A stretch of 64,000 nucleotides of DNA from the NCBI GenBank assembly GCA_963823335.1, contig CAWGLD010000001.1, forward strand, positions 1,632,001 through 1,696,000, given 5' to 3'. Shown here piece by piece: positions 6,928 to 60,282 of this stretch. Made by a program: the position numbers and the translations under genes. The number at the start of each line of letters is the position of its first letter. The stretch's first letter is position 1. The notes beneath the pieces were generated by a model, which saw only the letters and a list, made by a program, of their open reading frames with translations, was not told the DNA's origin and did no database searches. This DNA is from an uncultured delta proteobacterium (lineage in GTDB: Bacteria; Desulfobacterota; Desulfobacteria; Desulfobacterales; B30-G6).

Positions 6928-6933
6928 GAATCC

Positions 6934-9894: not shown

Positions 9895-9920
9895 GTTACG
9901 TATATAATAAGTCCTAAATA

Positions 9921-10867: not shown

Positions 10868-10944
10868 AATTGTCTCTCCTAAATTGAATTTAAAGTTTTA
10901 TCAGCATGAGGGGAAATAAACATCATGCAGTGGAAGCAAATAAT

Positions 10945-11160: not shown

Positions 11161-11163
11161 GTT

Positions 11164-12894: not shown

Positions 12895-12983
12895 TGGTTT
12901 CTCCTCTTTGGTTTGTGGATGTATATCATTTTGAAGCTGGTGTTCAAATCATCACATGGCGCTGGTAATGCGTATCATTTTAA

Positions 12984-13088
12984 GAGCTGTAAGCAATAAG
13001 CTGCAAAAAGGGTAGGGTCACCATGGGATCGTTGTACTGAAACCCGTTAACAGCTTATGGCTTACCGCTTATTGCTAAGCGCTAAAAG
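12984..13088. repeat. Heptamer inverted repeat tract
   Basis: agctgtaagcaataagctg ... cagcttatggcttaccgcttattgctaagcgcta. Confidence 0.7.
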
Positions 13089-13089
13089 T

Positions 13090-13923: not shown

Positions 13924-14033
13924 GGGTTCCCCCTTTACAGTTCAGGGTCAAAATGATAGACGGGAAAGATGATCGAACGAGGTTCGATAACTGAATATAA
14001 ATTGGATATCGAACGATAGTCAAGATCAAATCG

Positions 14034-14654: not shown

Positions 14655-14670
14655 TCTTTACCTCCTTGTG

Positions 14671-15663
14671 TTAAAGTCCTAACGCCGGTGTCCAGACATA
14701 GTAGAACCCGGGTGAGAGGTGGGTTGCTGTGTTCTGGAACCCCAGGTCGAGTAAAGGCTTTGCCTGAATATTGGCACGGGTGGTCAAGGGATTGTAGAGA
14801 TTGTCATTCGGAAACTGGGTCCGTCGATAGACCACGATTTTTGCTTTTTCAGGGAGTCCCGAAATTTTCAGGGCTTCTGCTACGGCATCATCCAGATATC
14901 CGATTTTATCGATGAGTCCCAGGGCCTTGGCCTCGACCGGCAGATAGACCCTTGCTGTGGATATCGTGGACAGAAGGGTCTCTTCCAGACCGCGATGCTT
15001 TGCCACGAGCTTCAGAAATTGATCTGCAAGACCGTCGGTCAAATCCTGCAACATCTGCGTTTCTTCTGCTGTCGGCCGGCGGAATGGTGAGCCCATATCC
15101 TTGTTTTTACCTGACTTGTTGACGTCCATGGTAAAACCGAGTTTGTCGATGAGTCCTGTGACATTGGGCCGCATGAATACCACGCCGATGGAGCCGGTGA
15201 TGGTTGTCGGATGGGCAAAGATTACATCTGCCGGAAGGGATACATAATAACCGCCTGAGGCGGCGATATCCATCATAGATACCACGATTTTGGCTTGGGT
15301 GCGCTCTTTGAAGACCCGGATTTCATTGTAGAGGATATCACTGGCGGTGGCTGTTCCGCCGGGGGAGTCCACTTTCAGGAGAAGACATTTTATTTCTTTA
15401 TCTTTTTCAGCCATGCGCAGTTGAGAAATAACCTCCTGAACCATACTCGGCATTGTTCGCAGCATACCTTCCCGGGGACGGGTGGAAATGACCCCCTGCA
15501 GGGATACAACCAGTACCTTCCCTTTTTCCGTTCCCTGCAATACCGATTCCTTGAGTGGATCCGAGGCATCAGAAAACAGCTTTACCTGCGGTGCGGCACA
15601 TCCACCTATGATTAGGATAAGGAAGCTTGTCAGTATCAGGATAATAAACCCTATTCGATTCAT
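14671..15663 (-). CDS. sppA: Signal peptide peptidase SppA (S49), probable lipoprotein
   Basis: DSPGG, AASGGYY, TGSIGV, KSGKNKD. Confidence 0.92.
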   Translation of the reverse strand: MNRIGFIILILTSFLILIIGGCAAPQVKLFSDASDPLKESVLQGTEKGKVLVVSLQGVISTRPREGMLRTMPSMVQEVISQLRMAEKDKEIKCLLLKVDSPGGTATASDILYNEIRVFKERTQAKIVVSMMDIAASGGYYVSLPADVIFAHPTTITGSIGVVFMRPNVTGLIDKLGFTMDVNKSGKNKDMGSPFRRPTAEETQMLQDLTDGLADQFLKLVAKHRGLEETLLSTISTARVYLPVEAKALGLIDKIGYLDDAVAEALKISGLPEKAKIVVYRRTQFPNDNLYNPLTTRANIQAKPLLDLGFQNTATHLSPGFYYVWTPALGL

Positions 15664-15787
15664 CTGTTTCCTCCGGTTATTTATGGTTGTAGATGTTCAT
15701 GGTTAACCCGTTTGGTAGACATGCCGACGAACAATGACGGCAATTTTACTAAATTGCTTTTCTCCTGTCAAAGTATTCCGCCAAACG

Positions 15788-16681
15788 CTATGGTCGTCGC
15801 CATAAAGATGTTCCGATATTGGTCAAATATACACCCAGACTGACCATGGCGGCCCCTGCCAGAAGGGAGATGGTAATGGGCTCGTCCAGAAACAGGAAGG
15901 CCAGAATGATGGCACTGATGGGAACAAAATTGATGAACAGGCTGGCCTTGGAAGGCCCCAGTTTGTTGATACCCTCATAATACCACACAAAACCCAGGAC
16001 CGTGCCGAAGAAGCCCAGATAGAAAAGGCTGAACCAGTTTGCCGGGGTGTAATCGAAGATATTCGTGGACACGCCTTCGGCCAAGGCGGCCGGAAACAGC
16101 AATATGGCGCCAATGACCGAGGCATAAGTAACTGCTTCAATCGCAGAAACATCCTGCATGACGCGTTTGCCGATCAAAGAATAGGTCACCCAGCTCAGGA
16201 CGGATAAAAAGATAAAAAGTTCACCAAGTCCAAAACTCTCCGTCAGCATGCCCTGGAGATTTCCTCGGGATATGGCAACCATGGCACCGCTTACAGATAT
16301 CAGTATGCCGACGATTTTGACGGTATTTAATTTTTCTTTAAACAGGAAAAATGAGGCGATGGTAATGAAAATTGGGTTGTTTGCAATAATGAGAGATGCC
16401 CTGCCTGCATGGATGAGATGCAGTCCTTTAAAGAAGAACACGTTATAGGAAAAGACCCCCGTGAGACCGAGCAGCAGCAGATAGAACATTTTTTCCTTTT
16501 GTATTGGACGGAAGCGGCCTTGCATTCGATAGGTCATAAACAAGAGCGGGATCGCAGCGATGGCAAACCGCAGAAAGGCGGCGGAAAAAGGCGCCACATT
16601 GTCTGACAGCGCCCTCCCGGCAATGAAGGTTCCCCCCCAGAATATGGCTGTCAGGAGCAGCTTGAAATGGATGAGTTTCAT
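15788..16681 (-). CDS. DMT/EamA family transporter
   Basis: About 10 TM segments; FWGGTF, FLRF; two EamA repeats. Confidence 0.9.
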   Translation of the reverse strand: MKLIHFKLLLTAIFWGGTFIAGRALSDNVAPFSAAFLRFAIAAIPLLFMTYRMQGRFRPIQKEKMFYLLLLGLTGVFSYNVFFFKGLHLIHAGRASLIIANNPIFITIASFFLFKEKLNTVKIVGILISVSGAMVAISRGNLQGMLTESFGLGELFIFLSVLSWVTYSLIGKRVMQDVSAIEAVTYASVIGAILLFPAALAEGVSTNIFDYTPANWFSLFYLGFFGTVLGFVWYYEGINKLGPSKASLFINFVPISAIILAFLFLDEPITISLLAGAAMVSLGVYLTNIGTSLWRRP

Positions 16682-44625: not shown

Positions 44626-44722
44626 GGCAACACACAGCATTGACAAAACCATTGCTTTTGGTTACATAACTCCGATGGTAGCAACCCGATTTATCTAACG
44701 ATTGGATGCAGAGGATTTGCAT

Positions 44723-47491
44723 ATGAATGATCAGGAAAAAATTATCATCAATGGAAATGCGTTTTCATTCGAACCCGGAGAAACCATTCTGGCTGTTGCC
44801 GGAAGAAATCACATCGATATCCCCACGCTATGTCACCTGAAGGGGGCCTCCCCAACGGGCAACTGCAGGATATGTGTGGTCAAAATAGAGAATGAGAAGG
44901 ATCTTTTGCCTTCCTGTGCCACCCTGGCGGAAGCCGGCATGGTGGTGCATTCGGAATCCTCGGAAGTTGTAAGGGCCCGCCGATTGATCATTCAACTCAT
45001 GCTCTCCACCGGTAATCACAACTGCGCCATCAGGGGGACCAGCAGTGACGACTGGACCCAGTTTCAGTTGAACGTCCAGCAGCATGACGACAGTTCAGAG
45101 CTTTGCCCGGTCTGGGGAGACTGCCGGTTACAGGACTTGGCCTATCGTTATCAGGTGGAGCCTGGAAGGTTTTCGGATGCGGGAACGCCCTATCCCATGG
45201 AGACGGTCAACCCGTTTATCGTCAGGGACTTTTCCCGCTGCATAAAATGCGGCCGGTGTGTTCAGGCCTGCAACGATATTCAAGTCAACAATGCCATTCA
45301 GTTCGGTTACACGGGCAGCAATTCTAAAATAATCGCTGCCGGTGATAAACCACTGAAAGATTCGGACTGTGTTTTCTGCGGCGAGTGTGTTCAGGTGTGT
45401 CCGGTGGGCGCTTTGGTGGAAAAAGACATCCGCTATCGGGTACGGCAATGGGAAACCGAAAAAGTCCGTACAACCTGTTCTTACTGCGGTGTGGGATGCC
45501 AGCTCTATCTGCATGTCAAGGACAACCGGGTTGTCAAGGTTTCCGGTGTCGAAGGCGTTCCCCCGAACTATGGCAGTCTGTGTGTCAAAGGCCGGTTTGG
45601 GTTTGATTTCATCCACTCGCCGGAGCGTTTGACCGCTCCCATGATCAAGGAGAACGGCACCTTCAGGGAAGCCACCTGGGACGAGGCCCTGGATATGGTG
45701 GCCAGGCGTTTCAGTGAAATAAGGGAAACCCACGGATCGGACAGTCTTGGTGTCCTGACCTCCGCGAGAATAACCAACGAGGAGATCTACATCACCAATA
45801 AGTTTGCACGGGCGGTGCTGAAAACAAACAACATCGATCACTGTGCCCGGCTCTGACATTCCTCGACCGTAGCCGGTCTGGCTGCAGCATTCGGAAGCGG
45901 TGCCATGACGAACACCATCAGCGACATCGAAACGGCGGACGTCATTCTGGTCACCGGATCCAACACCACAGAGAACCACCCAGTCTTGTCATCCTTCATC
46001 AAAAGGGCGGTCACCTTCAAGGGAGCCAGGCTCATCGTAGTCGATCCGCGGTTTATCCGGATTGCCAAGTTTGCCGATCACTGGTTGCGGCAAAAACTGG
46101 GGACCGATGTGGCCTGGATCAACGGCATGATGAACGTCATCATCGATGAAAATCTCTATGACCGCGCATTTGTGGAAAAGCGAACCGAGGGTTTCGAAGA
46201 ACTCAAAAAGAGTGTGGCAAAATACACACCGGCCTATGTGGAAGAGATCACCGGTATCCCCCAGGCAGACCTGGCCGATGCCGCCAGGATGTACGCAAAT
46301 GCACGCGCCGGAAGTATCTGTTATTGTATGGGCATTACCCAGCACACCTCGGGGACGGACAATGTCAAATCCCTGGCAAACCTGGCCATGCTTTGTGGCC
46401 ATATGGGGGTCGAAGGGGGTGGTGTCAATCCGTTGAGGGGTCAGAACAACGTCCAGGGCGCCTGTGACATGGGTGGACTGCCGAATGTTTTTTCGGGCTA
46501 CCAGCCGGTGGCTGATCCGGCCGTCTCAAAGAAGATGGCCGATGCCTGGGGCGTCAGCGATCTTCCGACCCAGCCGGGTCTGACCGTTACCAAAATGATC
46601 CCCAAGGCACATGACGGGGAGTTCAAAGGGTTGTATATCATCGGTGAGAACCCGCTGGTATCGGATCCAGATCTGAATCATGCCAAAAAAAGCCTCAGCA
46701 ATCTCGACTTCATGGTGGTGCAGGATATCTTCATGACCGAGACGGCCCAGCTTGCTGACGTGGTACTGCCGTCCAGGTGTTTTGCCGAAAAAGAGGGAAC
46801 CTTTACCAACAGTGAGCGGCGGGTACAGCGTGTACGCAAAGCTGTGGAAGCGCCGGGCCAGGCCATGGACGACTGGAAGATCACCACGGAAATTGCCGCG
46901 CGTATGGGGGTTGCCATGGCTTACGGCGATAGCCGGGAGATCATGGCAGAACTGGCTGCCGTGACGCCGTCTTATGCCGGGATCGACTATGAGCGGATAG
47001 ATTTCGAGGGCATTCACTGGCCCTGCCCCACCAAGGAACACCCTGGGACACCCATCCTTCACCGGGAGCAGTTTACGCGGGGCAAGGGTCTTTTTCACGC
47101 CATCGATTACAGGGAGCCGGCCGAAAACACCGACACGGAATACCCCCTGTTCCTGACGACCGGTCGCCTCCTGTACCACTATCATACCGGGACCATGACC
47201 ATGAAATCAGAGGGGCTCAATGAAAGGGCTCCGGTCTGTTTTGTGGAAATTTCAGCCGATGACGCCCAGACCTATGACCTTGAAGACGGTTCCATGGTCA
47301 AGGTTGAATCCCGGCGGGGCGACATCCGTGCCGCCATCAAAATATCTGACATGGCAGTGGCCGGAACTGTTTTCATCCCCTTTCATTTTGCCCAGGCCGC
47401 TGCTAACAAGCTCACGAATGCGGCCCTGGATCCTGTATCGGGGATTCCGGAGTATAAGGTGTGTGCGGTGAAGATCTCCAAGGCAGCGTAA
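44723..47491 (+). CDS. fdhF: Selenocysteine-containing formate dehydrogenase alpha subunit with NuoG-like Fe-S N-terminus
   Basis: ORFs 44702-45856 and 45905-47491 are in frame across TGA 45854-45856: DHCARL-U-HSSTVAGL; also RGQNNVQGACD; no Tat signal. Confidence 0.95.
45857..45890 (+). promoter_or_regulatory. SECIS element (fdh)
   Basis: GTAGCC-GGTCT-GGCTGC hairpin 12 nt after the UGA. Confidence 0.8.
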
Positions 47492-47505
47492 CTGTCTTGG
47501 AGATA

Positions 47506-47686
47506 GGGTTGGAGGTTTGAAGGGTATGAGGGTTGGAGGGTAGCAATTAGCTGTAAGCCATTCCCTCAATTCGTTAGATCTATCTGTAAAAACAAAAAGC
47601 CCTAAACGGTAGGCGCTAACAGCTTACTGCTTAGGGCTTTTTCTTTTGAAATATTACCCTCAGACCCTTCAAACCTCCACCCCTAT
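47506..47686. repeat. Nested octamer/heptamer inverted repeat with bidirectional terminator-like core
   Basis: AGGGTT octamers ... AAAAAGCCCTAA/TTAGGGCTTTTT ... ACCCT octamers, between convergent genes. Confidence 0.75.
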
Positions 47687-47689
47687 TTT

Positions 47690-48232
47690 CTACTCTGTCT
47701 CCTGGGGTTTCTTCACGGTTGGTGACAGGAAGTCAAAATAGTAATGGATTCCGGCACCGATGAAGGAATCAGCCATGGTTCCAAAGGACGTGTCGTCATC
47801 ATAGTCCATCATGGTAAGACCGACCTCGGTTGAAAATCCGAGATTGGGCAGGCCGCTGAAAAAATATTCTAGCCCGATGCCGATGCTGAGCCATTTGGCC
47901 GTCTCGGTGCTGCCTTTATCCGGATCGACACGGGCAAATCCCAAACCCATAATGCCATCCACGTGAAGATTCTCTTCATCTTTTATTTTGAAGTATACCT
48001 TGCCACCCACGTCCGTTTCACTGGGCCCATCGGAGTAATTGAATCCCAGAAGAGCCTGGACGGCGAGTTCATTGTTGATCCAGTATTTCACGGACAGTGA
48101 GTCCAAATCCTCTGGACTGAATTGAGAGTTAAAACCGACCCCCAGATTACCTTTCAACTCTTTTGCAAGAGCAGGACACGCAAGAACACCGAGTATAAGT
48201 ATGAACACGCATAATGTCTTAATTGTTTTCAT
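47690..48232 (-). CDS. Small outer-membrane beta-barrel protein
   Basis: Signal peptide (ALA-K); amphipathic strands GIGLEYFF and GAGIHYYF. Confidence 0.75.
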   Translation of the reverse strand: MKTIKTLCVFILILGVLACPALAKELKGNLGVGFNSQFSPEDLDSLSVKYWINNELAVQALLGFNYSDGPSETDVGGKVYFKIKDEENLHVDGIMGLGFARVDPDKGSTETAKWLSIGIGLEYFFSGLPNLGFSTEVGLTMMDYDDDTSFGTMADSFIGAGIHYYFDFLSPTVKKPQETE

Positions 48233-48265
48233 GATGCTCCTTTCATAAAAGCGATACTTTTATTG

Positions 48266-48313
48266 AAGAACCCCGCAGCAAGCTACGAGGAATGCGCTCG
48301 CTATTGCGGTTCA
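48266..48313 (+). repeat. IS200/IS605-end-like palindromic repeat, copy 2
   Basis: AAGAACCCCGCAGCAAGCTACGAGGAATGCGCTCGCTATTGCGGTTCA. Confidence 0.7.
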
Positions 48314-48345
48314 GGGCCGGGCCCTCTGGATCCGGGTATCTACTG

Positions 48346-49290
48346 TTAAACCTTCGGGCGCGGCAGGACCTTTGCCTGCTCGGCAATTTCCGGGACTTTG
48401 TGCTCCCACTCGATGGCCATGAGATGAACGCCGGCAACCCCTTTCATCTCCTTGAACTCCTCGATCTGCTCACAGGCGGCCTTGATGCCTTCTGCCGCGA
48501 CCTTTCCTTTTTCAGCTCCCTGGAGTCGTTTGATAACCTCGTCCGGTACATCCATCCCAGGCACCTTGCTCTTCATATACTTGGCCATACCGACACTCTT
48601 CATGGGTGTGACACCTGCCAGGATGTAGACTTTTTCAGTCAAGCCCATATCGTTGGCCCGCTTGATGAATTCTCTGAATTTATCCATGTTGTAGATGCAC
48701 TGGGTCTGGATGAAATCGACACCGGCACTGATCTTCTTGGCCAGTCTGTGAACGCGCCACTCAAAAGGGTCGGCAAACGGGTTGGCAGCCGCACCGATAA
48801 ACATCTTGGGGGCGATTTCCAGGTCGGCACCACCCAAGAATTTGCTTTCGTCACGCATTTTTTTGACCATGCCGATGAGTTGGATGGAATCGATATCAAA
48901 AACACCTTTTGCCTGGGGATGGTCGCCGAATTTTTGATGGTCGCCGGAGAGGCACAGCATGTTCTTGATACCGTGGGCTGAAGCCCCCAGGATGTCGGAC
49001 TGCATGGCCAGACGATTCCGGTCGCGGCATACCATTTGAAAATTGGGTTCCAGACCCTCCTGCATGATCAGAAGACTGGCTGCCCAGCTGGACATCCGTA
49101 CCATGGCCGTCTGGTTGTCGGTAATGTTGACCGCGTCCACCACTCCTTTCAGGTGTTTCGCTTTTTCCCTTACTTCCTCGGCATTGGAACCCCGCGGCGG
49201 ACCAAGTTCGCCTGTAAATGCAAAATGACCGGCCCGCAAGATTTTTTCCAAGTTACTTCCTGATTTGAAACCGTTTTCCTCTGTGCTCAT
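48346..49290 (-). CDS. metF: Methylenetetrahydrofolate reductase
   Basis: TGELGPP, NITDN, CRDRNRLAMQSD, LSGD, FIQTQ, GVHLM. Confidence 0.95.
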   Translation of the reverse strand: MSTEENGFKSGSNLEKILRAGHFAFTGELGPPRGSNAEEVREKAKHLKGVVDAVNITDNQTAMVRMSSWAASLLIMQEGLEPNFQMVCRDRNRLAMQSDILGASAHGIKNMLCLSGDHQKFGDHPQAKGVFDIDSIQLIGMVKKMRDESKFLGGADLEIAPKMFIGAAANPFADPFEWRVHRLAKKISAGVDFIQTQCIYNMDKFREFIKRANDMGLTEKVYILAGVTPMKSVGMAKYMKSKVPGMDVPDEVIKRLQGAEKGKVAAEGIKAACEQIEEFKEMKGVAGVHLMAIEWEHKVPEIAEQAKVLPRPKV

Positions 49291-49344
49291 ATGCATCACC
49301 TTATGTCAGATAAATGGTCATCCCTTTAAATGTGTTATGCGATT

Positions 49345-50025
49345 CTATTTTGTGTTGGCTTTCTCAGGTTTTTTATATCCCGGCTGGATCAACGTCCTGG
49401 GAACCTGGTCGTTCCATCCCACAGGCTCCTTGATACTGAGAATACAATCAAGGCGATCCTGAGTTGCCAGACGTTCGTAGATTCTGAACCAGGCACAGGG
49501 CTGATCGTCACTGATTTCACAGTTGCCGTCATTGGTTCCGCCACAGGGGCCGTTGTAAAGACCCTTGGCGCACATGGTAACGGGACAGATACCGCCCGTC
49601 ATTCCCAGAACACATTCACCGCAGGATCGGCAGCGTTCCTCGTACCATCCTACTGCCAGGTTGGCGGACATGCCGGTGGTATCCACCGCCGGGTAGACGG
49701 GGATACCCGGAAAACGTTCCGCTAAAAACTGGATACCGACCCCGCAGGCCATGGACAGAATGGCATCGTAATTCTTGGCAATGGGGTCGAAGGGCTCCAG
49801 GTATTCCACATCACACTGCCGTTCCACGGTGATGGTGCCGGTTTCCAGAGGCTTGTTTTCAAGTCTTCTGGCCATGTCGAGCTCTGCATTCAGGACATCG
49901 ACTTCCTTTTCGCCGCCCGCAAGGCAGACGGCCACACAGGTTCCGCACCCGGCGATGAGGACCTTTTTATGCCCTTTGAGCAGTTCTTTTATCTCGTCAA
50001 ACGGTTTCCTTTTGGCGACTATCAT
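49345..50025 (-). CDS. metV: Methylene-THF reductase small subunit MetV
   Basis: GCGTCVAVC, ERQC, ACGVG, CRSCGECVL..TGGICPVTMCAKGLYNGPCGG. Confidence 0.92.
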   Translation of the reverse strand: MIVAKRKPFDEIKELLKGHKKVLIAGCGTCVAVCLAGGEKEVDVLNAELDMARRLENKPLETGTITVERQCDVEYLEPFDPIAKNYDAILSMACGVGIQFLAERFPGIPVYPAVDTTGMSANLAVGWYEERCRSCGECVLGMTGGICPVTMCAKGLYNGPCGGTNDGNCEISDDQPCAWFRIYERLATQDRLDCILSIKEPVGWNDQVPRTLIQPGYKKPEKANTK

Positions 50026-50033
50026 GTTTCCTC

Positions 50034-51353
50034 CTACATCTCCGATTCGGGATGAAATACGTCGACATCCTTTAGATCATCTCCCAGATAAGCCCGTTCG
50101 TTGGGTCCCAGGATGCCCAGGGAGAGGCAGATCAGGGTCCATAGGTGAACCGTTTCCCAGGCATGGTCGCGTTGATCCGCCAGATCGTGGACCTGGGCGT
50201 GGCAGTTGTGACACGGCGTGATGCAGTAACTAGCCTGGGTGGCCAGGATCTGGTCAGCCTTGCATTTTCCATAGGCGCGGCGCTCTTCCGGGTATCCGGA
50301 TTGGAGGAACCCGCCTCCACCACCGCAGCAGTAATTATTCGAGCGATTCGGGTACATTTCGACGAAATTCTCTTCACCCACCACGGCTTTGACCACGTAG
50401 CGCAGATCCTCGGCAACAGGGTCCCCAAAGGATTTCCGCACCAGCTGACACGGGTCCTGTACCGTAAATTTGACCTGGCGTTCCCGGTTCCACTCGGAAC
50501 TGACCTTGAGTTTGCCATCGCGAATCCATTCGGCGTAGTATTGAATGATGCTCTTGATTTCGAAGTTGAAATCTATCTTGAATTTTTTCAGTCCGGCCCG
50601 GACTGCGAAAAGTTCGTGCCCTCACTCGGTATTGAGCCAGACCGCGCACCCGAGATCCTGCACCGCTTTTGCTTTTATACGCACGATTTTTTCCCAGTTT
50701 TCGTTGTCGGCCATGAACATACAATAGTTTTCGGCCGCCCAGCCCTTGGTCCCGTAAGTCCAATCAGCCCCGACAAGATTGAGGATTTTCCATAAGGGCA
50801 CCATTTCATCCGGTTCCGTGACCGGTTCGCGGGAGTTCTGGTTCAGAAAAAATTTAGCTCCTTTCTTGTTGACAGGTGCCTGCATGTCCTTGAACTCCGG
50901 TTGGCTTTCCTGATACTCTTCAAGCACATCCTCCACCACGAACTGGAAGTCTTCTTCCGTGGCACCCATGGCGCTGCAGGTGTCGTTACGAAGTGCCATA
51001 TCACAGGACCCCACAATTCCCTTGGGGCGCTTCTCTCTCGGCCAGGATCCCCGAGCATTGAAAACGAGCTGGGGAATGTCTATTTTCATGGGACAGACAT
51101 AGATGCAGCGTTGGCACATGCTGCACCACCACGGCCATTCAGACTTCAGAATTTCTTCATCCATTCCGAGTGCCGCCATACGTAAAAATTTACGGGGGTC
51201 CATGCCCCCGATTCCCGTGGCAGGGCATCCCGAAGAGCAGGCACCGCAGGTCAGACAAAGATTCAGGTTTCCTCCTTCAGGGAGTAGATCCTTTACCTTG
51301 TCCAGAAAGATGCTCTTCTTTTTCCCGCCAAGTTTAATTGCTTCTTCAGCCAT
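50034..51353 (-). CDS. Selenocysteine-containing HdrD-like protein (2x[4Fe-4S] plus CCG domains)
   Basis: Single 1320-bp frame across TGA 50622-50624: WLNTE-U-GHELF (ECGH motif); CLTCGACSSGC, CSMCQRCIYVC, QDPC, CCGGGGG, PCHNC. Confidence 0.92.
50585..50621 (-). promoter_or_regulatory. SECIS element (hdrD-like)
   Basis: CAGTCCGG-G-CCGGACTG hairpin 16 nt after the UGA. Confidence 0.8.
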
Positions 51354-51368
51354 GTTCGTTCCTCCGTT

Positions 51369-51791
51369 TTAGGCTTTCCCCGATTCCTTTAATGGATTGG
51401 GTCCCATCGCCTTGATATTTTCTGTCATTTCCTTGGCGTAGGCCGCAAAGGTCGGTCCTTCGCCAGAAGAAAGATTATACATTCTAACCCTGTCCGCTTC
51501 AAGGCCTATTTCCTCCAGGAGCATGCGTACGTGCTCGACCCGTTCACGGGCCCTGAAATTACCTTCGTTGTAGTGACAGGACCCTTCCAGGCAACCCACC
51601 ACATAAACACCGTCCGCCCCCTTCTGGATTGATCTGAGGAGGTACATGACATCCACTTTTCCGGTACAGGGTACGCGGATTATCTTGATGTTTGCCGGAT
51701 AGTCGAGCCGCATGGAACCTGCCAGGTCCGCTGCCGAATATCCTCAATAATCACAACAAAATGCGATAATCGTCGGTTCAAATTCCGTCAT
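51369..51791 (-). CDS. mvhD: Selenocysteine-containing MvhD/FlpD [2Fe-2S] subunit
   Basis: [29 protein letters not shown] across TGA 51744-51746; PCTGK, GCLEGSCHY; ATG overlaps the upstream stop. Confidence 0.94.
51705..51743 (-). promoter_or_regulatory. SECIS element (mvhD)
   Basis: GGACCTG-G-CAGGTTCC hairpin about 14 nt after the UGA. Confidence 0.7.
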
Positions 51792-54700
51792 TATAGGCCT
51801 CCTGCCAGTAGCGCGTCTATTTTACAGAGAATCTGGTCGTCTTCATAATAATTCAAGCTGATGGCCTGACGCGGGCAAACCGAGGCACAGACGCCGCAGC
51901 CGTGACACATGGCTTCGTCGATGACGATTTCTCCTTTTTCGATATCGAACTTGGGCACGTCAAAGGGACACGAGCGGACACAGGTCAGGCATTTGACGCA
52001 GTGTTCCACATCCACCTTGGCCGTGATGGCCGACAGCTTGATTTCATCTTTTGAAAGAAAGGTCATGGCCCTGGAGGCGGCAGCCTGGGCCTGGGCAATG
52101 GTTTCGGATATCAATTTTGGCGCATGGGCGGTACCGCACAGGAAGGTGGCATCGCTTCCCATGTCCACAGGTCTGAGTTTTACGTGGGCTTCAATGAAAA
52201 AACCCTCGGGATTCCGGTTCAGTTTCATGGTCTGGCTCAGTTCTTCCGTGTCGGCAGCTGCAACCCCGGCGCTGAGCACCAGCAGATCCGAGCGGATCTG
52301 GATCGGTAGCTGGAGCACGTGATCTTTGACGGTAACCAGCAGACCATCGTCAGTGGCTGTGACCTCGGGTGGTTGGTCCTTTTCGAAGCGAACGAAGATG
52401 ACGCCTTTTTGCCTGGCTTTGGTGTAATAATCCTCCAGCAATCCATATGTCCGCATGTCTCGATACAGGATAAATACCTGGGTATCGGGGCTGGCCTCCT
52501 TGATGGCCAGCGCATTCTTAACGGCCGATTGGCAGCAGATTCTAGAACAGTTGGGGTTTTCTTCGTTCCGCGAGCCCACACACTGGATCATGGTGACGCA
52601 CTCTAGCTTTTCAGCACCCTCGTTATGGAGGTGGTCTGTCAGTTCCACCTGGGTTTTGACACGCTCGTCCGTGCCGTAGAGATATTCCTTGGGTTCATAT
52701 TCATTGGCGCCGGTGGCCACCAGGATGACGCCATGTTCGATGACCCTGGGTTCCCGCATTGGGCCGACACCGATTTCGGTGGCGAAGTTACCCTGGAAAC
52801 CGTCAGAGGACATCACGACGGCGTTCGTCACGATGTCGATATTTTCCCGGGCGTTCACGGTTTCGATGAGTTCTTTTAAATAGTGCTGAATGTCTGCACC
52901 TTCGATGGTATGGTGGAGCCTGCGCGCCATTCCTCCCAGTTCGGGTCCTTTTTCGAGGAGGGTTACGGGAAGACCCTGTTTACTGATATTCAGGGCGGCA
53001 TTCATACCGGCGATACCACCGCCTATCACCAGGGCACGCTTGTTGACGCCGATAATTTTTTCCTTCAGCGGTCTCAGACGACTGGCGCGTGCCACGGCCA
53101 TCCGTACCAGATCCTTCGCCTTCTGGGTGGCGATGTCGGGATTGTTTGCATGTACCCAGGAGTTGTGATTACGGATGTTGGCCATCTCGAAGAGGTATTT
53201 ATTGAGGCCGCAGGCTTCCAGGGTTTCCATAAACATGGGCGCATGTGTTTTGGGGCTGCACGATGCCACCACCACCCGGTTCAGTTTTTCTTCCTTGATC
53301 TTTTTCTTGATGTCTTCCTGGGTATCCTGACTGCAGGTAAATAGGTTGTTATCCGTGTATACGACGTCGGGCAGGGTGGCGGCATAGGCCTGGACACCCG
53401 GTACGTCCACCACACCGCCGATGTTGATACCGCAGTTGCACACAAAGACACCGATTCTGGGTTCTTCCTCGCTGACGTCGAGTTCTTCGATCAGGGCGAT
53501 CTTTTTGATGTGCTTGCCTCTGGCTTCCGCAATATCCATACCGGCGGCACTTGCGGCAGCGCTGGCTTCCGTGACAGACGAGGGAATATCCTTGGGTCCC
53601 TGGAAGATGCCACAGGTGTAAACACCGGGTCGCGACGTTGCAACCGGTGTAAAGGGATCCGTGTTCACAAAATTGTAATGATTGAGGTCAATTTCGAGTC
53701 GTCTGGCAAGTTCGACGGATGCTTCGCCGACCTGCAGCCCCACGGACAGTACCAGCATGTCGAAAATCTCTTCCTGCATCTGCCCGGATTCATCCGCAAA
53801 GGTCACTTTCAGATTGCGGCTTTCAGGATCGTCGGCTATGGTGTGTACCCGGGCTTTGACAAAGCGCACCCCCTCCCTGTTTTTGGCCCGATCGTAGTAT
53901 TTTTCATAATCCTTGCCAAACGTGCGAATATCCATGTAGAAAACAGTGCAGTCCAGATCCTCTCCGGCGTGCTCCTTGGCGATCATGGCATCCTTGACGG
54001 CGTACATGCAGCAAACCGAGCTGCAGTAGCCATTACCGCAGCGGTTGGTGTCACGCGAGCCCACGCATTGCAGCCAGGCAATATTTTTGGGTTCTTTCTC
54101 GTCCGAGGGTCTTACAAGATGACCCATGGTCGGTCCGGAAGCGCTCAATATGCGTTCAAATTCCAGACTGGTCATGACATTCGGGTTGACACCGTAGTGA
54201 TAGAATTCCTTCAGACCGCTGGGGTCGTACAGGTCTGTTCCAGAGGAAAGAATGACCGAGCCGACCTTGATTTCTTTGTCTACCGGTGTCTGGTCATGGT
54301 CCACCGCTTCTGCCAGACAGGCCTTGACGCACTGGTAGCATTCCGAGCAGATACCGCATTCCAGGCATCGCTGGGCTTCGGTTTTTGCTTCGGTTTCATC
54401 ATAACCGAATGAGACTTCCAGAAAATTACATTCCCGGGCTTCGGGGGCCAGGCAGCGCACAGGCGTGCGGGCTTTTTTAGGCTCGTTTTCTAGATCGGGT
54501 TTTTCAAATTCCCAGTTCTTTTCACGGTCTGCTGCCAGGTCCTGGCCGTTCAGAAAGCGGTGAATGCTCTCGGCGGCTTCTTTACCGCAGGAGACGGCAT
54601 CCACCACGGATTTGGGGCCATAGAAGGCATCACCACCGGCAAAAACCCAATCGATCCCTGTCTGGAGAGTCAAGGGATCCGCTTCGAGTCCACCTCTGGG

Positions 54701-56221
54701 TGTGACGGGAATTCCCTGGGCCTTGATGAGTTCGAGCTGCGCGCTCTGGCCGATGGCGACAATCACCGTGTCCCCAAAAAACGGCTGGCAGGCATTGTCA
54801 TCATATTGTGGGTTGAATCGACCCCCTTCATCAAAAACGGTCGTACAGGTTTTGAACTCGATTCCGGAAACCTTGCTGGTCTTGTCGATGAAAAAGGATT
54901 TGGGGCCGAAACTGTTGACGATCTGGATATCGCTTTCCAGGGCTTCTTCGATTTCGTGCTGCCAGGCCGGCATTTCATCCCGTGCTTCAAGACAGATCAA
55001 AGTGACGTTTTTGGCACCTTTGCGTTTGGCGGTCAGGGCGACATCGATGGCCACGTTTCCGCCGCCCACCACAACCACGTCTTCACCGATGGCAACATCT
55101 TTGCCCAGGGCGCAGTCCCTCAGAAAGTCGACACCCTGAAGAACGCCTTCGGCATCTTCGTTTTCGACACCGAGCTTACGGCCGCCGTGCAGACCTATGG
55201 CCAGAAAGACGGCGGAAAATCCATCTTTTTTCAGACTTTCAAGCGTGATATCTTGGCCAAACGTCACACCGGTCTTTATCTCGACACCCATTTTCTGAAT
55301 GACGCGAATTTCGTCGGCCAGAAGATCTCTGGGGAGACGATATTCGGGAATTCCCACGGCCATCATGCCGCCGGTGACAGGGAGTTTTTCATATATGGTT
55401 ACCTGGTAACCCTGTCTGGCCAGACAGTAGGCGGTTGTCAGGCCCGCGGGTCCGGATCCGATAATGGCCACTTTTTCTTTCCGGGCCTCGGCCACTTCCG
55501 GTATATACCAGTCACCCTGCTGCCGCTCGTAGTCCGCCAGAAAGCGATGCAGCTCCCGGATGGCAAGTGGCTGATCCACGTCGTTACGGGTACAGATCTC
55601 CTCGCAGGGGTGATGGCAGACCCTGCCGCAGATACCGGGGAAAGGATGCTCCTGCTTGAAGAGTTCAAGGGCTTCCCTGTTTTTGCCCTGGTTGATAAGG
55701 GCGATATAGCCCTGGATGCTCACATGTGCGGGGCAGGTGGCCTTGCATGGCGCGGTACCACGTTTTTCGATACCATAGGCACCAGGAATGGCCTGGGGAT
55801 ATTTCTTGAAAGCGGCTTTGCGTGTCGAGAGCCCTTCATCATATTCGTTGGAGCATGTAATGGGGCAGACCTTGGCACACTCGCCACAGCTGGTGCACTT
55901 GTCCGGGTCGATGAAGCGGGGTGTCTGGTGAACTTTTGCCGTAAAATTACCGGGTTCCCCCTTCAGATCCACCAGTTCCGTGTTGGTGAGCAGTTCGATG
56001 TTTAGATGCCGGCCGACCTCGACCAGTTTCGGTGAAATGACTCACATGGCACAGTCATTGGTGGGGAAGGTCTTGTCCAGTTGGGACATGAGCCCGCCAA
56101 TGGCTGATGATTTTTCGACCAGATAAACATAATAGCCGGATTCGGCCAGATCCAGGGCTGACTGCATCCCCGCGATTCCGCCGCCGACCACCATTGTCGC
56201 ACCTATTATATCCTTAGGCAT
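51791..56221 (-). CDS. hdrA: Selenocysteine-containing large HdrA (HdrL-type) with inserted GltD/NfnB-like NAD(P)/FAD module
   Basis: 1476 aa across TGA 56042-56044: [17 protein letters not shown]; insert [51 protein letters not shown]; second FAD site; C-terminal ferredoxin. Confidence 0.93.
56005..56041 (-). promoter_or_regulatory. SECIS element (hdrA/L)
   Basis: CTGGTCG-AGGT-CGGCCGG hairpin 15 nt after the UGA. Confidence 0.75.
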
Positions 56222-56649
56222 GGTTAGCTTCTCCTGAGTGTTCTGGTTGGGTTTATTTTTCCAAATCGTTGTCAGGGACGAGACACAACAAGGCGCTTCA
56301 AGGGGGCCTTGTCCACCTTTTGCCTGTCCACCACGCAAACCAAAAAGAATGTGTATATAACGGACAACGCCTTGTCAATAAAAATTGAACGTTTAAATTC
56401 CCTGTCTCGGTATCTATCCGGCATGGAGGCCGGGCTGTCACCGAGAACCTTTTAATTGCTTGAAATACAGATATAATTTTGTTTAATGTTTCGTTTTGTA
56501 AACGCTGTTATCAATCCAATTCTTTGCTTGCAAGATCTGGATTATATGATTATGTTGCTCTGCGCAGAACAACATCTGGTTATATGGATTGTATACAAGA
56601 GATATTCATCCAAAAGAAGGCAATTCAACAACGTGAAAGCGAGTATAAA

Positions 56650-58239
56650 ATGTCACAAGACAATTACAGATCCTGGCCTTTCAAAGAGGCGTTAAAACTG
56701 CAAAAACGGTATGCCGAACCTCCTTCAGGGCCGGTAAAATTCGAAACCGGATTCGGACCCAGCGGTCTGCCTCATATCGGCACCTTTGCGGAAGTGGCCC
56801 GCACCACATGGGTGCGCCAGGCTTTTGAATTCCAGACCCGTTGGCCCACGGAGCTCATCGCCTTCAGCGACGACATGGACGGTTTGCGGAAAGTACCGTT
56901 GAACATGCCGCAACAGGAGATGCTGAAAGAGAACATCGGCAAGCCTTTGTGCCAAATTCCAGATCCTTTTGGCGAATGTGAAAGCTACAGCGGTTACATG
57001 AACCAGAAGCTGAAACAGTTTCTGGACAGCTATGAATTCGATTACACGTTTCAAAGTTCCCAAGAGGCCTACACCAGGGGTGATTTCAATACAGGTTTGA
57101 CCACCATTCTACAGAATGTGGAGGCCATCAAGTCGATTATACTGCCCACCCTGAGCGAGGGCAAACGGGGGAACTGGTCTCCTTTTTTCCCAGTCTGTGA
57201 AAGCTGTGGCAGGATCAACAGCACGCGTGTTACGGCCTACCATGTGGACAGCAATACCATCGATTATGTCTGTGATCAGGAAGACGGGCTTTTGCAGAGC
57301 TGCCGCCACCACGGCACGGCATCCATATTTGACGGCAATGTCAAGGTAGGTTGGAAGGTGGACTGGGCCCTGCGCTGGTTTGCCTATGACATCGGCTATG
57401 AAATGTACGGCAAGGATCTGATTGAATCGGCAAAACTCTCGGGCAGAATTACGCGCGCCATGGGGAAGCAGCCGCCCACAGGCATCTTCTGTGAGCTTTT
57501 TCTGGATGAAGACGGCCGCAAGATATCCAAAAGTGTGGGCAAGGGCTTGACCATCGACTCCTGGACAACCTACGCCCCCCTGGGGTCGCTGCTCTACTAT
57601 ATATTTCAGAACCCCAAACAGGCCAAACGACTCTACTGGGGGATCGTTCCCAAGTCGGTGGACGAGTACCTGACAGGTTTGAAGCATTACCCGGCCCTGG
57701 AGAAAGAGAAACAGCCGGATTCGCCGATCTGGCATCTTTTCAACATGGGCGAACAAATACCGGTTTACGGGTCGTCCATCAATTTTTCGCTGATCAACAA
57801 CCTGATTTCCGCTGTTGGGGCCGATGACAGGGAGCTGATCATGGAATACCTCAAACGCCATGATCCCGGTCTGAGTGCGTGTCAGGATATTGTTACGGAC
57901 CTGGTGGACAAAGCCATGTCCTATTACCGGGATTTTGTGTTGCCGCTCAAGCGATACCGCAATCCCAGTGCGCAGGAAAAGGAGATGCTGGGACAGCTGC
58001 GCCAGGATCTGGCCGCCTGTGATATTACAGATGACAACGCGTTACAGACCATGCCGTTCGCAGTGGCCCGAATGTTCGAGGTGCAACCCGGAGACTTTTT
58101 CAGGATGTTCTATGAGGTGATTTTCGGCCAGGAGCGGGGTCCCCGTTTCGGCACCTTTGTTCAACTGGTGGGAAAAGACAAGGCGCTTTCCATGCTGGAT
58201 GAGGCCATCAGCCAAAAGCCAAACAGAACAGACTTATGA
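56650..58239 (+). CDS. lysS: Lysine-tRNA ligase, class I
   Basis: ETGFGPSGLPHIGT, WKVDWALRW, EMYGKD, KISKSVG, GPRFG. Confidence 0.95.
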   Translation: MSQDNYRSWPFKEALKLQKRYAEPPSGPVKFETGFGPSGLPHIGTFAEVARTTWVRQAFEFQTRWPTELIAFSDDMDGLRKVPLNMPQQEMLKENIGKPLCQIPDPFGECESYSGYMNQKLKQFLDSYEFDYTFQSSQEAYTRGDFNTGLTTILQNVEAIKSIILPTLSEGKRGNWSPFFPVCESCGRINSTRVTAYHVDSNTIDYVCDQEDGLLQSCRHHGTASIFDGNVKVGWKVDWALRWFAYDIGYEMYGKDLIESAKLSGRITRAMGKQPPTGIFCELFLDEDGRKISKSVGKGLTIDSWTTYAPLGSLLYYIFQNPKQAKRLYWGIVPKSVDEYLTGLKHYPALEKEKQPDSPIWHLFNMGEQIPVYGSSINFSLINNLISAVGADDRELIMEYLKRHDPGLSACQDIVTDLVDKAMSYYRDFVLPLKRYRNPSAQEKEMLGQLRQDLAACDITDDNALQTMPFAVARMFEVQPGDFFRMFYEVIFGQERGPRFGTFVQLVGKDKALSMLDEAISQKPNRTDL

Positions 58240-58360: not shown

Positions 58361-58487
58361 AACCCGTACATTTCACAAACTGATCGGCTCCGGAGCAAGG
58401 CATTTCAGTCTGAAGCCGTAGTGTACTACTGCGAAGACTGAATAACACAGCGCCGGAGTCGATCAGGCCATGTGAAATGTACGGGTT
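58361..58487. mobile_element. MITE-like palindromic element (127 bp)
   Basis: Perfect 17-bp terminal inverted repeats AACCCGTACATTTCACA / TGTGAAATGTACGGGTT with nested stems. Confidence 0.75.
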
Positions 58488-58950
58488 AGCCGTGGCAGGG
58501 CTTGCATGTGCTGGTGGTTTTCGGGTTTCCATGACACCGCTTGCAGGATACGGGGTCAATTCTTCCATCGATTCTGTGCCGCGAAAGGTAGTCGCCGCGA
58601 TGCGGTGTGCGACGATAGGTTCCGGTTGGATCCCTGCGGGACGGGGTTAGTTCGATACCGACCCCATGGCAGGCATCACAGTAGCTCGGCTGGTGACACA
58701 TGCTGCAGACGTTCCGGCTCTGATAGGCCACCAGGCGATGGTCATCCGCAAAAAAAGGTGTGTGGACAAAACGTCTGAAGGGAAAATTCTCATCGGTTTC
58801 ATCGTGGCAGTCCAGACAAAACCGCAGGTCCTCCCCTTCTTCCTGGATATGCCGAATGGGCAGCGATGGCCGTTCTTCGGCGGCGCATGCCAGAAATATT
58901 CCAGTCAAAACAACCACCAGCCCTATCTTCAAAAGTGTATATCGGGTCAT
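58486..58950 (-). CDS. Pentaheme c-type cytochrome lipoprotein
   Basis: Lipobox FLAC; CLDCH, CSMCH, CDACH, CKRCH, CKPCH. Confidence 0.9.
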   Translation of the reverse strand: MTRYTLLKIGLVVVLTGIFLACAAEERPSLPIRHIQEEGEDLRFCLDCHDETDENFPFRRFVHTPFFADDHRLVAYQSRNVCSMCHQPSYCDACHGVGIELTPSRRDPTGTYRRTPHRGDYLSRHRIDGRIDPVSCKRCHGNPKTTSTCKPCHG

Positions 58951-58998
58951 ATGTTTTCCAGAACTGCCCCTGCATGGTTCAAGGCGGGACGCCATCCG

Positions 58999-60282
58999 TC
59001 AATATTCGTATTTTAAAACAACCGTAAGCCGGGCATCGTTGTCAAAATAAGGATCCGAGCTGTAATCCCCTGAAATCGAAAGCTGGAGCGTGTCTTCCAG
59101 AAGGTGCTTTCCGCCGCCCAGGGAAACGAACCAGGAGTGGTCTTTGCCGTAAATGTCTTTATTGTACTGAATAAAAAGAATATCGGAGCTCATAAACCAG
59201 CTTTCAGCTGTATTGAAAGGCCCATTCCAGAACAGATAGCCCCGCCCGAGGCGATACCGGTTTTCACTCGACTCGCCATCCATGATGCCGCCTTCGAGGC
59301 CATAGCGGATTGTATCGTTTGGATAGAAATTCAAAATAGCTGCCATGTATAGGCTGGTTTCACTGCGCTGATCATAATCGTACTGTTGGATTCTGATGCC
59401 TGCATCGAATGCTGGATTCTGCTGCCAGATAACATCAGTACCAATGAGCGCGAGTTTTTCTTCTGTTTTCTGCAGAAAACGAAAAGGCTGAAAATCTGTG
59501 TCCTCATCTGTAAAATAGTCTTCGAACCGATATGCCTGGTAAACCGGCTTCAGCAGCAGAGAATCCAGGGTAAAGGCGGCTTCATAGGTGTGCTCTCGCC
59601 ATTGATTGGTTTCAATGTTCCAGCTGGAGATGCCCAGCAGTGTCAGACGGGTGCTGAAACTGAAGGACGTGTCCAGACCCAGCGTATTTTCGATGATCTC
59701 ACTGTCATCGGTGATTCTTTTGTATGACAGGCCTATTTCACTGAACTGGCCGGTAGAAAAAGCTGCCCGGCCACCTAGGAAGCTGTCACCAGAGCGGCCG
59801 TTTTCTTCTTCCAGGGCGACCGGAACACCTCCGAACAGTTCGACGCTCACCCGGGGGCTGAACATTCCCAGAACCCCGATGCCATCGATACTATCATTGA
59901 TGATTCCTGAAAAAACATGCTGTCTGCCGATTTTAAGATTAAACCCGTTGGCAGGGGGCATATATTCGACATACCCGTAGAGCAGTTCCCCGTCGGTATC
60001 ATCCTCGTAATAGTCGCCATCTCCCGTATCCGCGCGCAACCATCCGTGAAGATGGAGAGAAAGCCCTTTGGTCTCGATATGTCCGTAATCAAGCTGCATG
60101 TATTCATAAACGGGAATTACCTGCCGGGATGCGCCTTTGTCGGTTTCCCACTCAAAGGCAGACAAAATAGTTTCGCTTTTCACGTGGAGCTCAGGCTCTT
60201 CTGCCGAGATGGAAAATGACAGCATCAACAGCAGTATCAGGATCGAAAACATCTGAGCGCTAATTTTGGTATGTGTCGTCAA
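58999..60282 (-). CDS. Outer-membrane beta-barrel (porin-like) protein
   Basis: Signal peptide, KIGRQ..IDG, alternating aromatic strands, C-terminal LKYEY. Confidence 0.8.
   Translation of the reverse strand: MTTHTKISAQMFSILILLLMLSFSISAEEPELHVKSETILSAFEWETDKGASRQVIPVYEYMQLDYGHIETKGLSLHLHGWLRADTGDGDYYEDDTDGELLYGYVEYMPPANGFNLKIGRQHVFSGIINDSIDGIGVLGMFSPRVSVELFGGVPVALEEENGRSGDSFLGGRAAFSTGQFSEIGLSYKRITDDSEIIENTLGLDTSFSFSTRLTLLGISSWNIETNQWREHTYEAAFTLDSLLLKPVYQAYRFEDYFTDEDTDFQPFRFLQKTEEKLALIGTDVIWQQNPAFDAGIRIQQYDYDQRSETSLYMAAILNFYPNDTIRYGLEGGIMDGESSENRYRLGRGYLFWNGPFNTAESWFMSSDILFIQYNKDIYGKDHSWFVSLGGGKHLLEDTLQLSISGDYSSDPYFDNDARLTVVLKYEY

Follow-up and report, generated by a model that had tools for sequence, protein, structure and literature searches.

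The genes analyzed here lie in a 64,000-nucleotide stretch of DNA from an uncultured delta proteobacterium of the Desulfobacterales (lineage B30-G6; GenBank assembly GCA_963823335.1, contig CAWGLD010000001.1, positions 1,632,001 to 1,696,000 of the forward strand). This whole stretch is referred to as the window, and positions are those of the window unless a contig or locus is named. Five packed genes on its minus strand (48346-56221), hdrL-mvhD-hdrD-like-metV-metF, combine proteins of the heterodisulfide reductase (Hdr) type and the adaptor MvhD with the two subunits of a methylene-tetrahydrofolate (methylene-THF) reductase, MetV and MetF, and three of the five are predicted to encode selenocysteine (Sec):

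51791..56221, minus strand: hdrL, a 1476-residue fused double HdrA with an NfnB/GltD-like insert and one Sec (translation, Pfam, NCBIfam, HdrA chains of the PDB)
51369..51791, minus strand: mvhD, 140 residues, a [2Fe-2S] adaptor with one Sec (PF02662 (FlpD), 1e-48; MvhD/VhuD chains, E 4e-41 to 6e-36)
50034..51353, minus strand: hdrD-like, 439 residues, HdrC-like with 2 x [4Fe-4S] plus one CCG motif and one Sec (Pfam CCG 297-388, Fer4 30-92)
49345..50025, minus strand: metV, 226 residues, the Cys-rich small subunit of MetVF (PF12225 (DUF5981), 1.7e-32)
48346..49299, minus strand: metF, the methylene-THF reductase catalytic subunit, start uncertain within 49290-49299 (PF02219 (MTHFR), 2.1e-39; MTHFR chains)

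A preliminary description, made from the letters of this DNA and a list of its open reading frames, had reported five closely spaced minus-strand genes, three of them split in that list, and both points are borne out by the reading frames and by the Pfam and NCBIfam matches. The table 11 list divides hdrL, mvhD and the hdrD-like gene; reading TGA as Sec (U) joins the parts of each gene into one frame that contains just one TGA (51791-56338, 51369-51791 and 50034-51353). The likely start of hdrL is the ATG at 56221, with AGGAG 9 nucleotides upstream. The genes hdrL and mvhD overlap by 1 nucleotide (TAATG), and the gaps that follow are 15, 8 and 45 nucleotides, the last lying between metV and metF. 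A scan for consensus promoters and terminators gave nothing convincing within the operon or directly after it. MetV, for which the PDB search returned no solved relative, has 13 Cys that are invariant among 85 distinct homologues. The genome also encodes acsB/cdhC, fhs, dsrA and dsrC and is therefore that of a sulfate reducer with a Wood-Ljungdahl pathway, and the assignment of the five genes as an Hdr/MvhD-linked MetVF cluster of that pathway is supported.

The three in-frame TGA codons and the hairpins that follow them are as follows:

56042..56044, minus strand: Sec codon of HdrL (CAMU, pairing with the Cys three residues before), aligned to solved HdrA chains
51744..51746, minus strand: Sec codon of MvhD (CCDYU), aligned to solved MvhD chains
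50622..50624, minus strand: Sec codon of the HdrD-like protein (NTEUGH), from homologue and EtfD alignments
56009..56026, minus strand: hairpin of hdrL resembling a Sec insertion sequence (SECIS), 7 base pairs, loop AGGU (RNAalifold)
51715..51729, minus strand: SECIS-like hairpin of mvhD, 6 base pairs, loop GGC (RNAalifold comparison)
50589..50605, minus strand: SECIS-like hairpin of the hdrD-like gene, 118 distinct sequences with compensatory changes

As the preliminary description had claimed, each TGA falls where homologues have Cys, and the read-through alignments place either Sec or Cys of homologous proteins at all three sites. In HdrL, whose residues are counted here from the upstream TTG at 56338, U99 (FPTNDCAMU) pairs with the X of 9sfi_A (FPTDDCAMX) and the Cys of 5odc_A; U16 of MvhD pairs with the X of 9sfi_K and with the Cys of 7bkb_F and 9sw2_D. 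The column of U244 in the HdrD-like protein is Cys (ECGH) in 28/28 aligned distant full-length homologues, which were drawn from a search of 1.84 billion representatives. Close homologues retain the TGA itself, with 65 alignments showing TGA and 4 showing Cys at the HdrL site (at least 50% identity; the sets of loci overlap and duplicates are included). At the MvhD site TGA is found in 54/55 distinct homologues, the remaining one having Cys, and at the HdrD site in 114/114 (at least 60% identity in both cases).

The hairpins reported after each TGA also stand, on comparative grounds. The stem starts 18-20 nucleotides past the U of the UGA in all three genes and is kept in 55, 54 and 118 distinct homologues, and the entropy of third codon positions is 0 or near 0 at about codons +5 to +11, as against 1-1.9 outside. 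In RNAalifold all 7 pairs of the hdrL hairpin are canonical in 54-55/55 distinct sequences, with synonymous sites frozen, and the 6/6 pairs of the mvhD hairpin are invariant in 54/54 distinct sequences, with a third-position entropy of 0 over codons +5 to +9. The hdrD stem shows exchanges at pair 21-35 (AU 90, GU 18, GC 8, UA 1, CG 1) and pair 26-30 (GC 98, UA 17, GU 2, AU 1). It is this comparative evidence that carries weight, because single-sequence folds of the three post-UGA stretches were no better than shuffles (z -1.16, -1.81 and -1.24). An Rfam search of 47000-58000 at a permissive threshold gave chance matches only and no SECIS family, and a dedicated SECIS predictor was not run. The machinery for Sec, which the preliminary description had proposed to look for as selABCD, is encoded in the genome as selA (610 bits), selB (373 bits), selD (372 bits) and a tRNA-Sec. 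The selD gene (G000:C5:144246-145172) itself has one in-frame TGA and thus specifies a selenoprotein SelD. As judged from sequence, the three TGA of the operon are Sec codons, and the annotation can be corrected for three selenoprotein genes that gene callers have each cut in two.

The domain order of HdrL was deduced from its matches to the HdrA chains 5odc_A, 8rvu_a and 9sfi_A, which fall in four stretches (E 1e-184 to 1e-167). The first HdrA unit corresponds to HdrA 146-296 plus 300-506 and the second to HdrA 3-244 plus 508-653. Residues 46-204 match HdrA 146-296, a region in which the thioredoxin-reductase-like domain begins and which includes the Cys-x-x-Sec pair and the inserted ferredoxin domain's first cluster motif, and the unit is continued by residues 663-872 (HdrA 300-506). 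The second unit, which lacks the Cys pair, begins from the N-terminal domain with residues 951-1191 (HdrA 3-244) and ends with residues 1364-1511 (HdrA 508-653). Between the two parts of the first unit lies a further module:

54395..55750, minus strand: NfnB/GltD-like module with 2 x [4Fe-4S], flavin adenine dinucleotide (FAD) and NAD(P)H folds (NfnB-type chains, Pfam, insert-free relative)

This region, HdrL ~197-648, matches NfnB-/GltD-type chains (4ylf_B and 5jca_L, E 2e-69 and 1e-66 over residues 195-599), contains Fer4_20 (195-275) and Pyr_redox_2 (289-583) domains, and scores 542 bits against NF009410, over the cut-off of 516. A BLASTP comparison with the insert-free relative P0156 (locus L110) gave 58% identity over HdrL 46-204, 66% over 642-1511 and nothing in between, and hence the NfnB-like module separates the two cluster motifs of the ferredoxin domain that is inserted in HdrA. 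To judge by these alignments it is an insertion inside that ferredoxin domain, which is a new observation.

The HdrD-like protein is a relative, and not a member, of the DsrK, TmcB and HmcF equivalog families, because its scores (161, 152 and 112 bits) are far under the respective cut-offs of 735, 750 and 400. Its family profile matches the EtfD chain 9ojn_A (E 1e-37) and HdrC chains, and matches HdrB chains for the C-terminal CCG motif only. There are two cubane motifs (CxxCxxCxxxC; C33/36/39/43 and C77/80/83/87) and one CCG motif (C302-X39-C342C343-X37-C381xxC384), and all of these Cys are invariant either in the alignment of distant homologues or among the 114 close ones. In EtfD, whose numbering was confirmed by Cys503, Cys538 and Thr539 landing at their published positions, Cys581 is described as a ligand of a distal linear [3Fe-4S] cluster and His583 as completing a proximal non-cubane [4Fe-4S] cluster that is bound by five Cys (PMC13083937). 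U244 pairs with EtfD Cys581 and His246 with EtfD His583, and the five Cys and the His of the non-cubane site (C302, C342, C343, C381, C384 and H246) are invariant in the HdrD-like protein. Of the distal ligands C503, C538, C581 and C584 the position of C581 alone is kept, as Sec, with Ser174, Ala206 and Glu247 at the others. Two further Cys, Cys117 and Cys211, are invariant and specific to the close HdrD-like subfamily, and these might stand in for the lost distal ligands. The HdrD Sec thus aligns with a cluster-ligating EtfD Cys, and two residues further on stands the His ligand of the non-cubane cluster; this assignment is new here. Sec244 accordingly occupies the distal end of the electron wire, the place at which HdrB binds its substrate and BamD, and probably EtfD, contacts the electron-transferring flavoprotein (ETF), and the alignment is compatible with its being either a cluster ligand or a free selenol.

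The conservation of the neighborhood was surveyed from two sides. The first survey covered 80 loci centered on close MetF homologues (79-97% identical, all of Desulfobacterales type), 21 of which were too short to classify, with the following arrangements in the others:

13 loci: HdrL (with insert)-MvhD-HdrD-MetV-MetF, the order of the window
21 loci: the order of the window with an insert-free double HdrA instead of HdrL
16 loci: MetV-MetF-HdrA-MvhD, 5 of these then followed by HdrD
3 loci: double HdrA-MvhD-MetV-MetF, without HdrD
1 locus: HdrL-MvhD-MetV-MetF, without HdrD
1 locus: form of HdrA unclear
4 loci: other neighbors of metF

The second covered 80 loci centered on HdrD:

21 loci: hdrL or hdrA with mvhD upstream, metV downstream
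3 loci: metV-metF-hdrA-mvhD upstream
3 loci: hdrA-mvhD, no metVF
2 loci: odd cases
51 loci: none of the other four genes adjoining, 15 of these with the full 8 kb on both sides

The preliminary description had suggested a survey of synteny across Desulfobacterota; it was run within the Desulfobacterales, where hdrA or hdrL with mvhD stands beside metV-metF in 55 of the 59 classifiable MetF-centered loci although the gene order is shuffled into at least four forms. This synteny, which survives rearrangement, is the main argument that the genes form a functional unit. The arrangement is very common in the order. HdrD matches (E 1e-60 or better) were found in 132/151 sampled genomes, often several per genome, and every HdrD match listed across the order has one TGA. 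The word self-contained, which had been used for the complex, is doubtful, since HdrD is often encoded apart and insert-free variants exist, one of which (locus L110) has an HdrL-like gene of at least 1111 codons with a pyridine-nucleotide oxidoreductase part directly upstream of hdrA-mvhD-hdrD-metV-metF. The genes upstream at L110 (L110:1-4231) include a 267-residue MvhD with a C-terminal extension of ~120 residues, which recalls the long adaptor BamF of 10.64898/2026.04.10.717634.

Those stand-alone HdrD genes that were inspected have unrelated neighbors (parAB, an MttB-family gene, tRNA synthetases and a transposase). All five of the genomes examined in which the closest HdrD stands alone still carry HdrL(+insert)-MvhD-MetV-MetF, and three of them have a 54-55% identical HdrD paralogue directly upstream of the HdrL cluster, after a MetF-like gene and a response regulator. 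The order at these three loci of other Desulfobacterales (L182, L184 and L185) is HTH-receiver regulator, MetF-like, Sec-HdrD (54-55% identical), HdrL, MvhD, MetV and MetF, and the MetF-like protein has 292 residues and no MetV partner. Among cultivated strains, the cluster is carried by Desulfospira joergensenii DSM 10085 (L184), by Desulfonema magnum 4be13 (L106, with the insert-free HdrA) and by Desulfatibacillum alkenivorans (L165, in the order metV-metF-hdrA-mvhD-hdrD). The genome of the window contains a second, paralogous cluster outside the window (G000:C1:948610-957885; locus L171, ~6605-15886), with the order metF-like, hdrL (60% identical), mvhD (63%), metV (50%), metF (63%), a receiver protein and hdrD (73%). 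It has Sec at the same three sites and is flanked by a divergent sigma-54 activator upstream and two PAS histidine kinases downstream, and has the appearance of a regulated twin of the window cluster. Elsewhere in the genome, on contig C5, an HdrB-like gene of the classical kind, which encodes two CCG domains, adjoins another hdrA-mvhD pair. The genome's sole dsrC match lies ~18-25 kb before the window (G000:C1:1607162-1614448), a few kb from an hdrA (53% identical to parts of HdrL) and an mvhD (47%), a region that recalls the hdrL1-mvhD-dsrABC locus reported for Desulfobacterium autotrophicum (PMC2702500).

At least part of the stretch is present in 20 public sequencing runs, 7 of which are recorded as RNA. 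Each of the five genes is covered, and each of the four junctions bridged, by contigs from four estuary metatranscriptome runs:

hdrD/mvhD junction: contigs 51041-51414, 51150-51735, 51185-51746 and 51250-51738, no differences from the window
mvhD/hdrL junction, including the mvhD UGA: contigs 51717-52021 and 51717-52168, 2 and 5 differences
metV/hdrD junction, including the hdrD UGA: contig 49781-50714, 33 differences
metF/metV junction: contig 49109-49464, 21 differences

These contigs support expression but do not prove it, because DNA can occur in RNA libraries and contigs cannot show that the genes form one transcript.

The closest characterized system is the type IV methylene-THF reductase of Moorella thermoacetica, in which MetF, MetV, MvhD and an NADH-oxidizing HdrA with more than one FAD are likewise encoded together (PMC5861303, PMC8578096, PMC13040438, PMC6295475). 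The MetFV, HdrABC and MvhD proteins of Moorella are reported to co-purify (PMC6295475, PMC5861303), and the enzyme is another proposed flavin-based bifurcation or confurcation system that lacks an identified third redox partner, none having been established since 2014 (PMC6295475). Unlike Moorella, the window encodes one HdrD-like protein, in which Pfam finds a single CCG domain, in place of separate HdrB (two CCG) and HdrC proteins, has three Sec, and belongs to a sulfate reducer, where the oxidative direction is likely. The preliminary description had presented two features as departures from what is known, the replacement of HdrB and HdrC by one Sec-containing protein and an HdrA with its own GltD/NfnB-like module. 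Both are indeed present, the former as the 439-residue protein with an HdrC-like N-terminus and one CCG domain and the latter as the module that matches NfnB-type chains, but neither is unique, and each has a published precedent: NADH oxidation and two FAD are reported for Moorella HdrA (PMC8578096, PMC5861303), and HdrC and HdrB are described on one polypeptide beside mvhD and metVF in the hdr(A, fused CB)-mvhD-metVF cluster of marine Chloroflexi, which belongs to another phylum and for whose genes the text reports no Sec (PMC5736913).

Within the Desulfobacterales themselves, HdrL, Sec-MvhD and Sec-HdrD were defined in 2009 in D. autotrophicum HRM2 (PMC2702500), where HdrL is described as a large HdrA/glutamate-synthase fusion selenoprotein that is always followed by mvhD, and where Sec-containing soluble HdrD paralogues are also noted. 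That work names both HdrL and metF and ties HdrL to NADH and sulfite reduction, its text making no link to MetF, and it calls HdrL unique to HRM2, as opposed to the order-wide distribution found here. Related remarks are given for the Desulfobacterales partners of ANME (anaerobic archaeal methanotrophs), in which HdrA or HdrABC is reported beside metF (PMC10553843). Among the papers found, none treats HdrL-MvhD-HdrD-MetVF of the Desulfobacterales as a unit or places the HdrD Sec structurally, with the reservation that figures and supplements may show the order. By description, the architecture also resembles BamDEF of Geobacter metallireducens, part of the class II benzoyl-CoA reductase, with a fused HdrA dimer (BamE), an MvhD-like adaptor (BamF) whose Sec stands at the position of the equivalent Cys, and an HdrD-like subunit (BamD) that docks a protein partner, has a non-cubane cluster with five Cys and one His as ligands, and is degenerate at its distal site (10.64898/2026.04.10.717634). 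The output of BamDEF is different, namely a tungsten ring reductase plus ETF, and NADH enters there through a separate NuoEF-like module, with no NfnB insert; no Bam chain was among the 19 PDB matches of the HdrL search. With EtfD of Mycobacterium smegmatis (PDB 9OJN; PMC13083937) and the DsrK/TmcB/HmcF group the HdrD-like protein shares two cubane motifs and CCG domains, and unlike EtfD it has no membrane domain, lacks 3/4 of the distal linear-cluster ligands by alignment, and has Sec for Cys.

We propose that the five genes together encode one soluble complex, a Sec-containing version of the Hdr-type (type IV) methylene-THF reductase in a sulfate reducer, which on the whole we consider probable. 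That the genes belong to a single complex of this type is very likely from the gene content and from a synteny that withstands rearrangement; bifurcation, the use of NAD(P)H and DsrC or ferredoxin as partners are inferences. In such a complex MetF, with its flavin, and MetV, with its Fe-S clusters, would interconvert methyl-THF and methylene-THF, the first HdrA unit of HdrL, which contains the Cys-x-x-Sec pair, would by homology also hold the electron-splitting FAD, and the NfnB-like insert would bind NAD(P)(H). Ferredoxin would be the low-potential partner, and HdrD would be a high-potential arm that wires or docks MetVF, which would thus be on the high-potential side through HdrD or MvhD. 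The operation that we consider most likely in an acetyl-CoA oxidizer of this kind is a confurcation in which methyl-THF (~-200 mV) and ferredoxin reduced with electrons from CO dehydrogenase meet at the HdrL flavin to yield two NAD(P)H, with the reverse reaction taking place during CO2 fixation. A confurcation for methyl-THF oxidation has been proposed for an acetate oxidizer (PMC6295475), and the wiring mirrors the reaction proposed for Moorella (PMC5861303). This particular wiring is advanced tentatively, as plausible and something short of likely.

Several points weigh against the complex as proposed. In the HdrA structure described in 2017, the inserted ferredoxin domain is reportedly the low-potential exit of the methanogen enzyme, and an NAD(P)H donor module at this place is therefore not an obvious wiring. 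Sec244 is present in 114/114 close HdrD homologues, more than a simple electron wire seems to need, HdrD is encoded apart in many genomes (51/80 HdrD-centered loci, 15 with full 8-kb flanks), and the contigs from RNA libraries prove neither transcription nor a single transcript. The purified Moorella complex, moreover, is reported neither to have reduced ferredoxin nor to have coupled NADH to methylene-THF (PMC6295475, PMC8578096).

The same complex could instead be wired as in methanogens, with methyl-THF as a mid-potential donor that delivers electrons to the HdrL flavin by way of MetV and MvhD. From there the inserted domain would carry one electron uphill to NAD(P)+ (or ferredoxin), and HdrD would carry the other downhill to a thiol/disulfide acceptor, such as a DsrC trisulfide or disulfide, that is reduced at the Sec adjacent to the non-cubane cluster. 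Methyl-group oxidation would then be coupled directly to sulfite reduction. We regard this arrangement as somewhat unlikely, although the anatomy fits it as well. HdrD belongs to the wider group of DsrK, TmcB, HmcF and HdrD, the genome has dsrAB and dsrC, and the NfnB module is on what is said to be the low-potential arm of methanogen HdrA. By our arithmetic, if a donor at -200 mV is split to -320 mV, an acceptor is required at about -80 mV. What remains of the distal site includes U244, which precedes by two residues the His aligned with the EtfD non-cubane ligand; this is the end of the wire, at which HdrB is described as binding its substrate. The Sec is kept in 114/114 close homologues, and Cys117 and Cys211 are likewise invariant. 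On the other hand, no dsrC or tusA was found beside the cluster here or beside those of five extra genomes, and in three related loci, where such a gene was sought next to HdrD, the genes found were a response regulator and a second one of MetF-like type. Variants that lack the insert would have to drive ferredoxin reduction from -200 mV, for which the acceptor must be very positive, and the homologous site in BamD and EtfD is described as serving protein-to-protein electron transfer and not disulfide chemistry (10.64898/2026.04.10.717634, PMC13083937). Nothing that was computed separates this wiring from confurcation, and we lean slightly to confurcation because its stoichiometry with CO oxidation is natural and because BamD and EtfD serve protein-to-protein electron transfer.

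Two separate enzymes that happen to be neighbors are improbable, that is, a ferredoxin-dependent (type II) MetVF beside an HdrL-MvhD-HdrD NAD(P)H:ferredoxin/disulfide oxidoreductase comparable to Flx-Hdr. MetVF alone is reported to be active in some acetogens (PMC8760232, PMC8515935), HdrA-MvhD-HdrD sets without metVF exist at three loci, and HdrD genes can stand alone; nevertheless, the neighborhood is kept across at least four gene orders in 55/59 classifiable loci, the frames overlap or are 8-45 nucleotides apart, and the Moorella proteins co-purify (PMC6295475, PMC5861303). Still further removed is the reading of the three TGA as true stops, with the genes split or pseudogenes, which we consider extremely improbable. 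It would agree with the way gene callers split these genes and with the many database entries that are fragments of ~240 and ~190 residues, but the in-frame homology runs across each TGA, the codon is kept in 114/114 (HdrD) and 54/55 (MvhD) homologues, the hairpins are conserved, the Sec machinery is complete, and at two of the three sites Sec is seen in solved homologues.

Among the genes around the operon, a 180-residue protein with a signal-peptide-like start and a weak match to outer-membrane beta-barrels (E 1.6e-4) is encoded directly 3' of metF (47690-48232, minus strand); it was left out of the system because it is retained in just 5/80 MetF-centered loci. Between this gene and fdhA lies a strong hairpin at ~47590-47645 (stretch 47575-47660; -30.6 kcal/mol, z -4.6, equaled by 0/200 shuffles), preceded by an A-run and followed by a U-run, which is probably a two-way terminator and which gave chance Rfam matches on both strands. 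A fourth selenoprotein gene (44702-47491, plus strand) is convergent with the operon and encodes a 929-residue molybdopterin protein of the formate dehydrogenase type that has 2Fe-2S and 4Fe-4S domains at its N-terminus; the reading frame is crossed by one TGA (45854-45856). It has no adjoining gene for a partner subunit, and an ATP-grasp gene and a small open reading frame lie upstream. At 58486-60282 (minus strand) a 427-residue protein with a hydrophobic N-terminus and no Pfam match is followed by a 169-residue protein with five CxxCH heme motifs; the two genes join into one frame through one TGA, for which no evidence of Sec was seen.

Acetyl-CoA-oxidizing Desulfobacterales, which run the Wood-Ljungdahl pathway in reverse, are reported to account for a large share of carbon mineralization in marine sediments (PMC11887813), and their oxidation of methyl-THF to methylene-THF (~-200 mV) cannot reduce NAD+ unaided, the acceptor in these bacteria not having been established (PMC6295475). 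The operon is the order-wide candidate for this step; the HdrD family is present in 132/151 of the genomes sampled, and near-identical sequence is present in estuarine RNA libraries. Its anatomy yields hypotheses about the place at which the NAD(P)H module is inserted, the HdrA unit that has the Cys-x-x-Sec pair and the position of the HdrD Sec relative to the non-cubane cluster, and the cluster gives a specific and testable lead to the redox partner that is missing for methylene-THF reductases of the Hdr type. It is conceivable, but we think quite unlikely, that the acceptor in methyl-THF oxidation is the disulfide or trisulfide of a sulfur carrier such as DsrC, reduced at the HdrD Sec, with the paired electron lifted to NAD(P)H via the NfnB module on what would be HdrA's low-potential arm. 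If so, a DsrC-type carrier would be the third partner of the Hdr-type methylene-THF reductases and the acceptor in complete-oxidizing sulfate reducers, and a cytoplasmic flavin-based electron bifurcation would link the Wood-Ljungdahl pathway directly to sulfite reduction.

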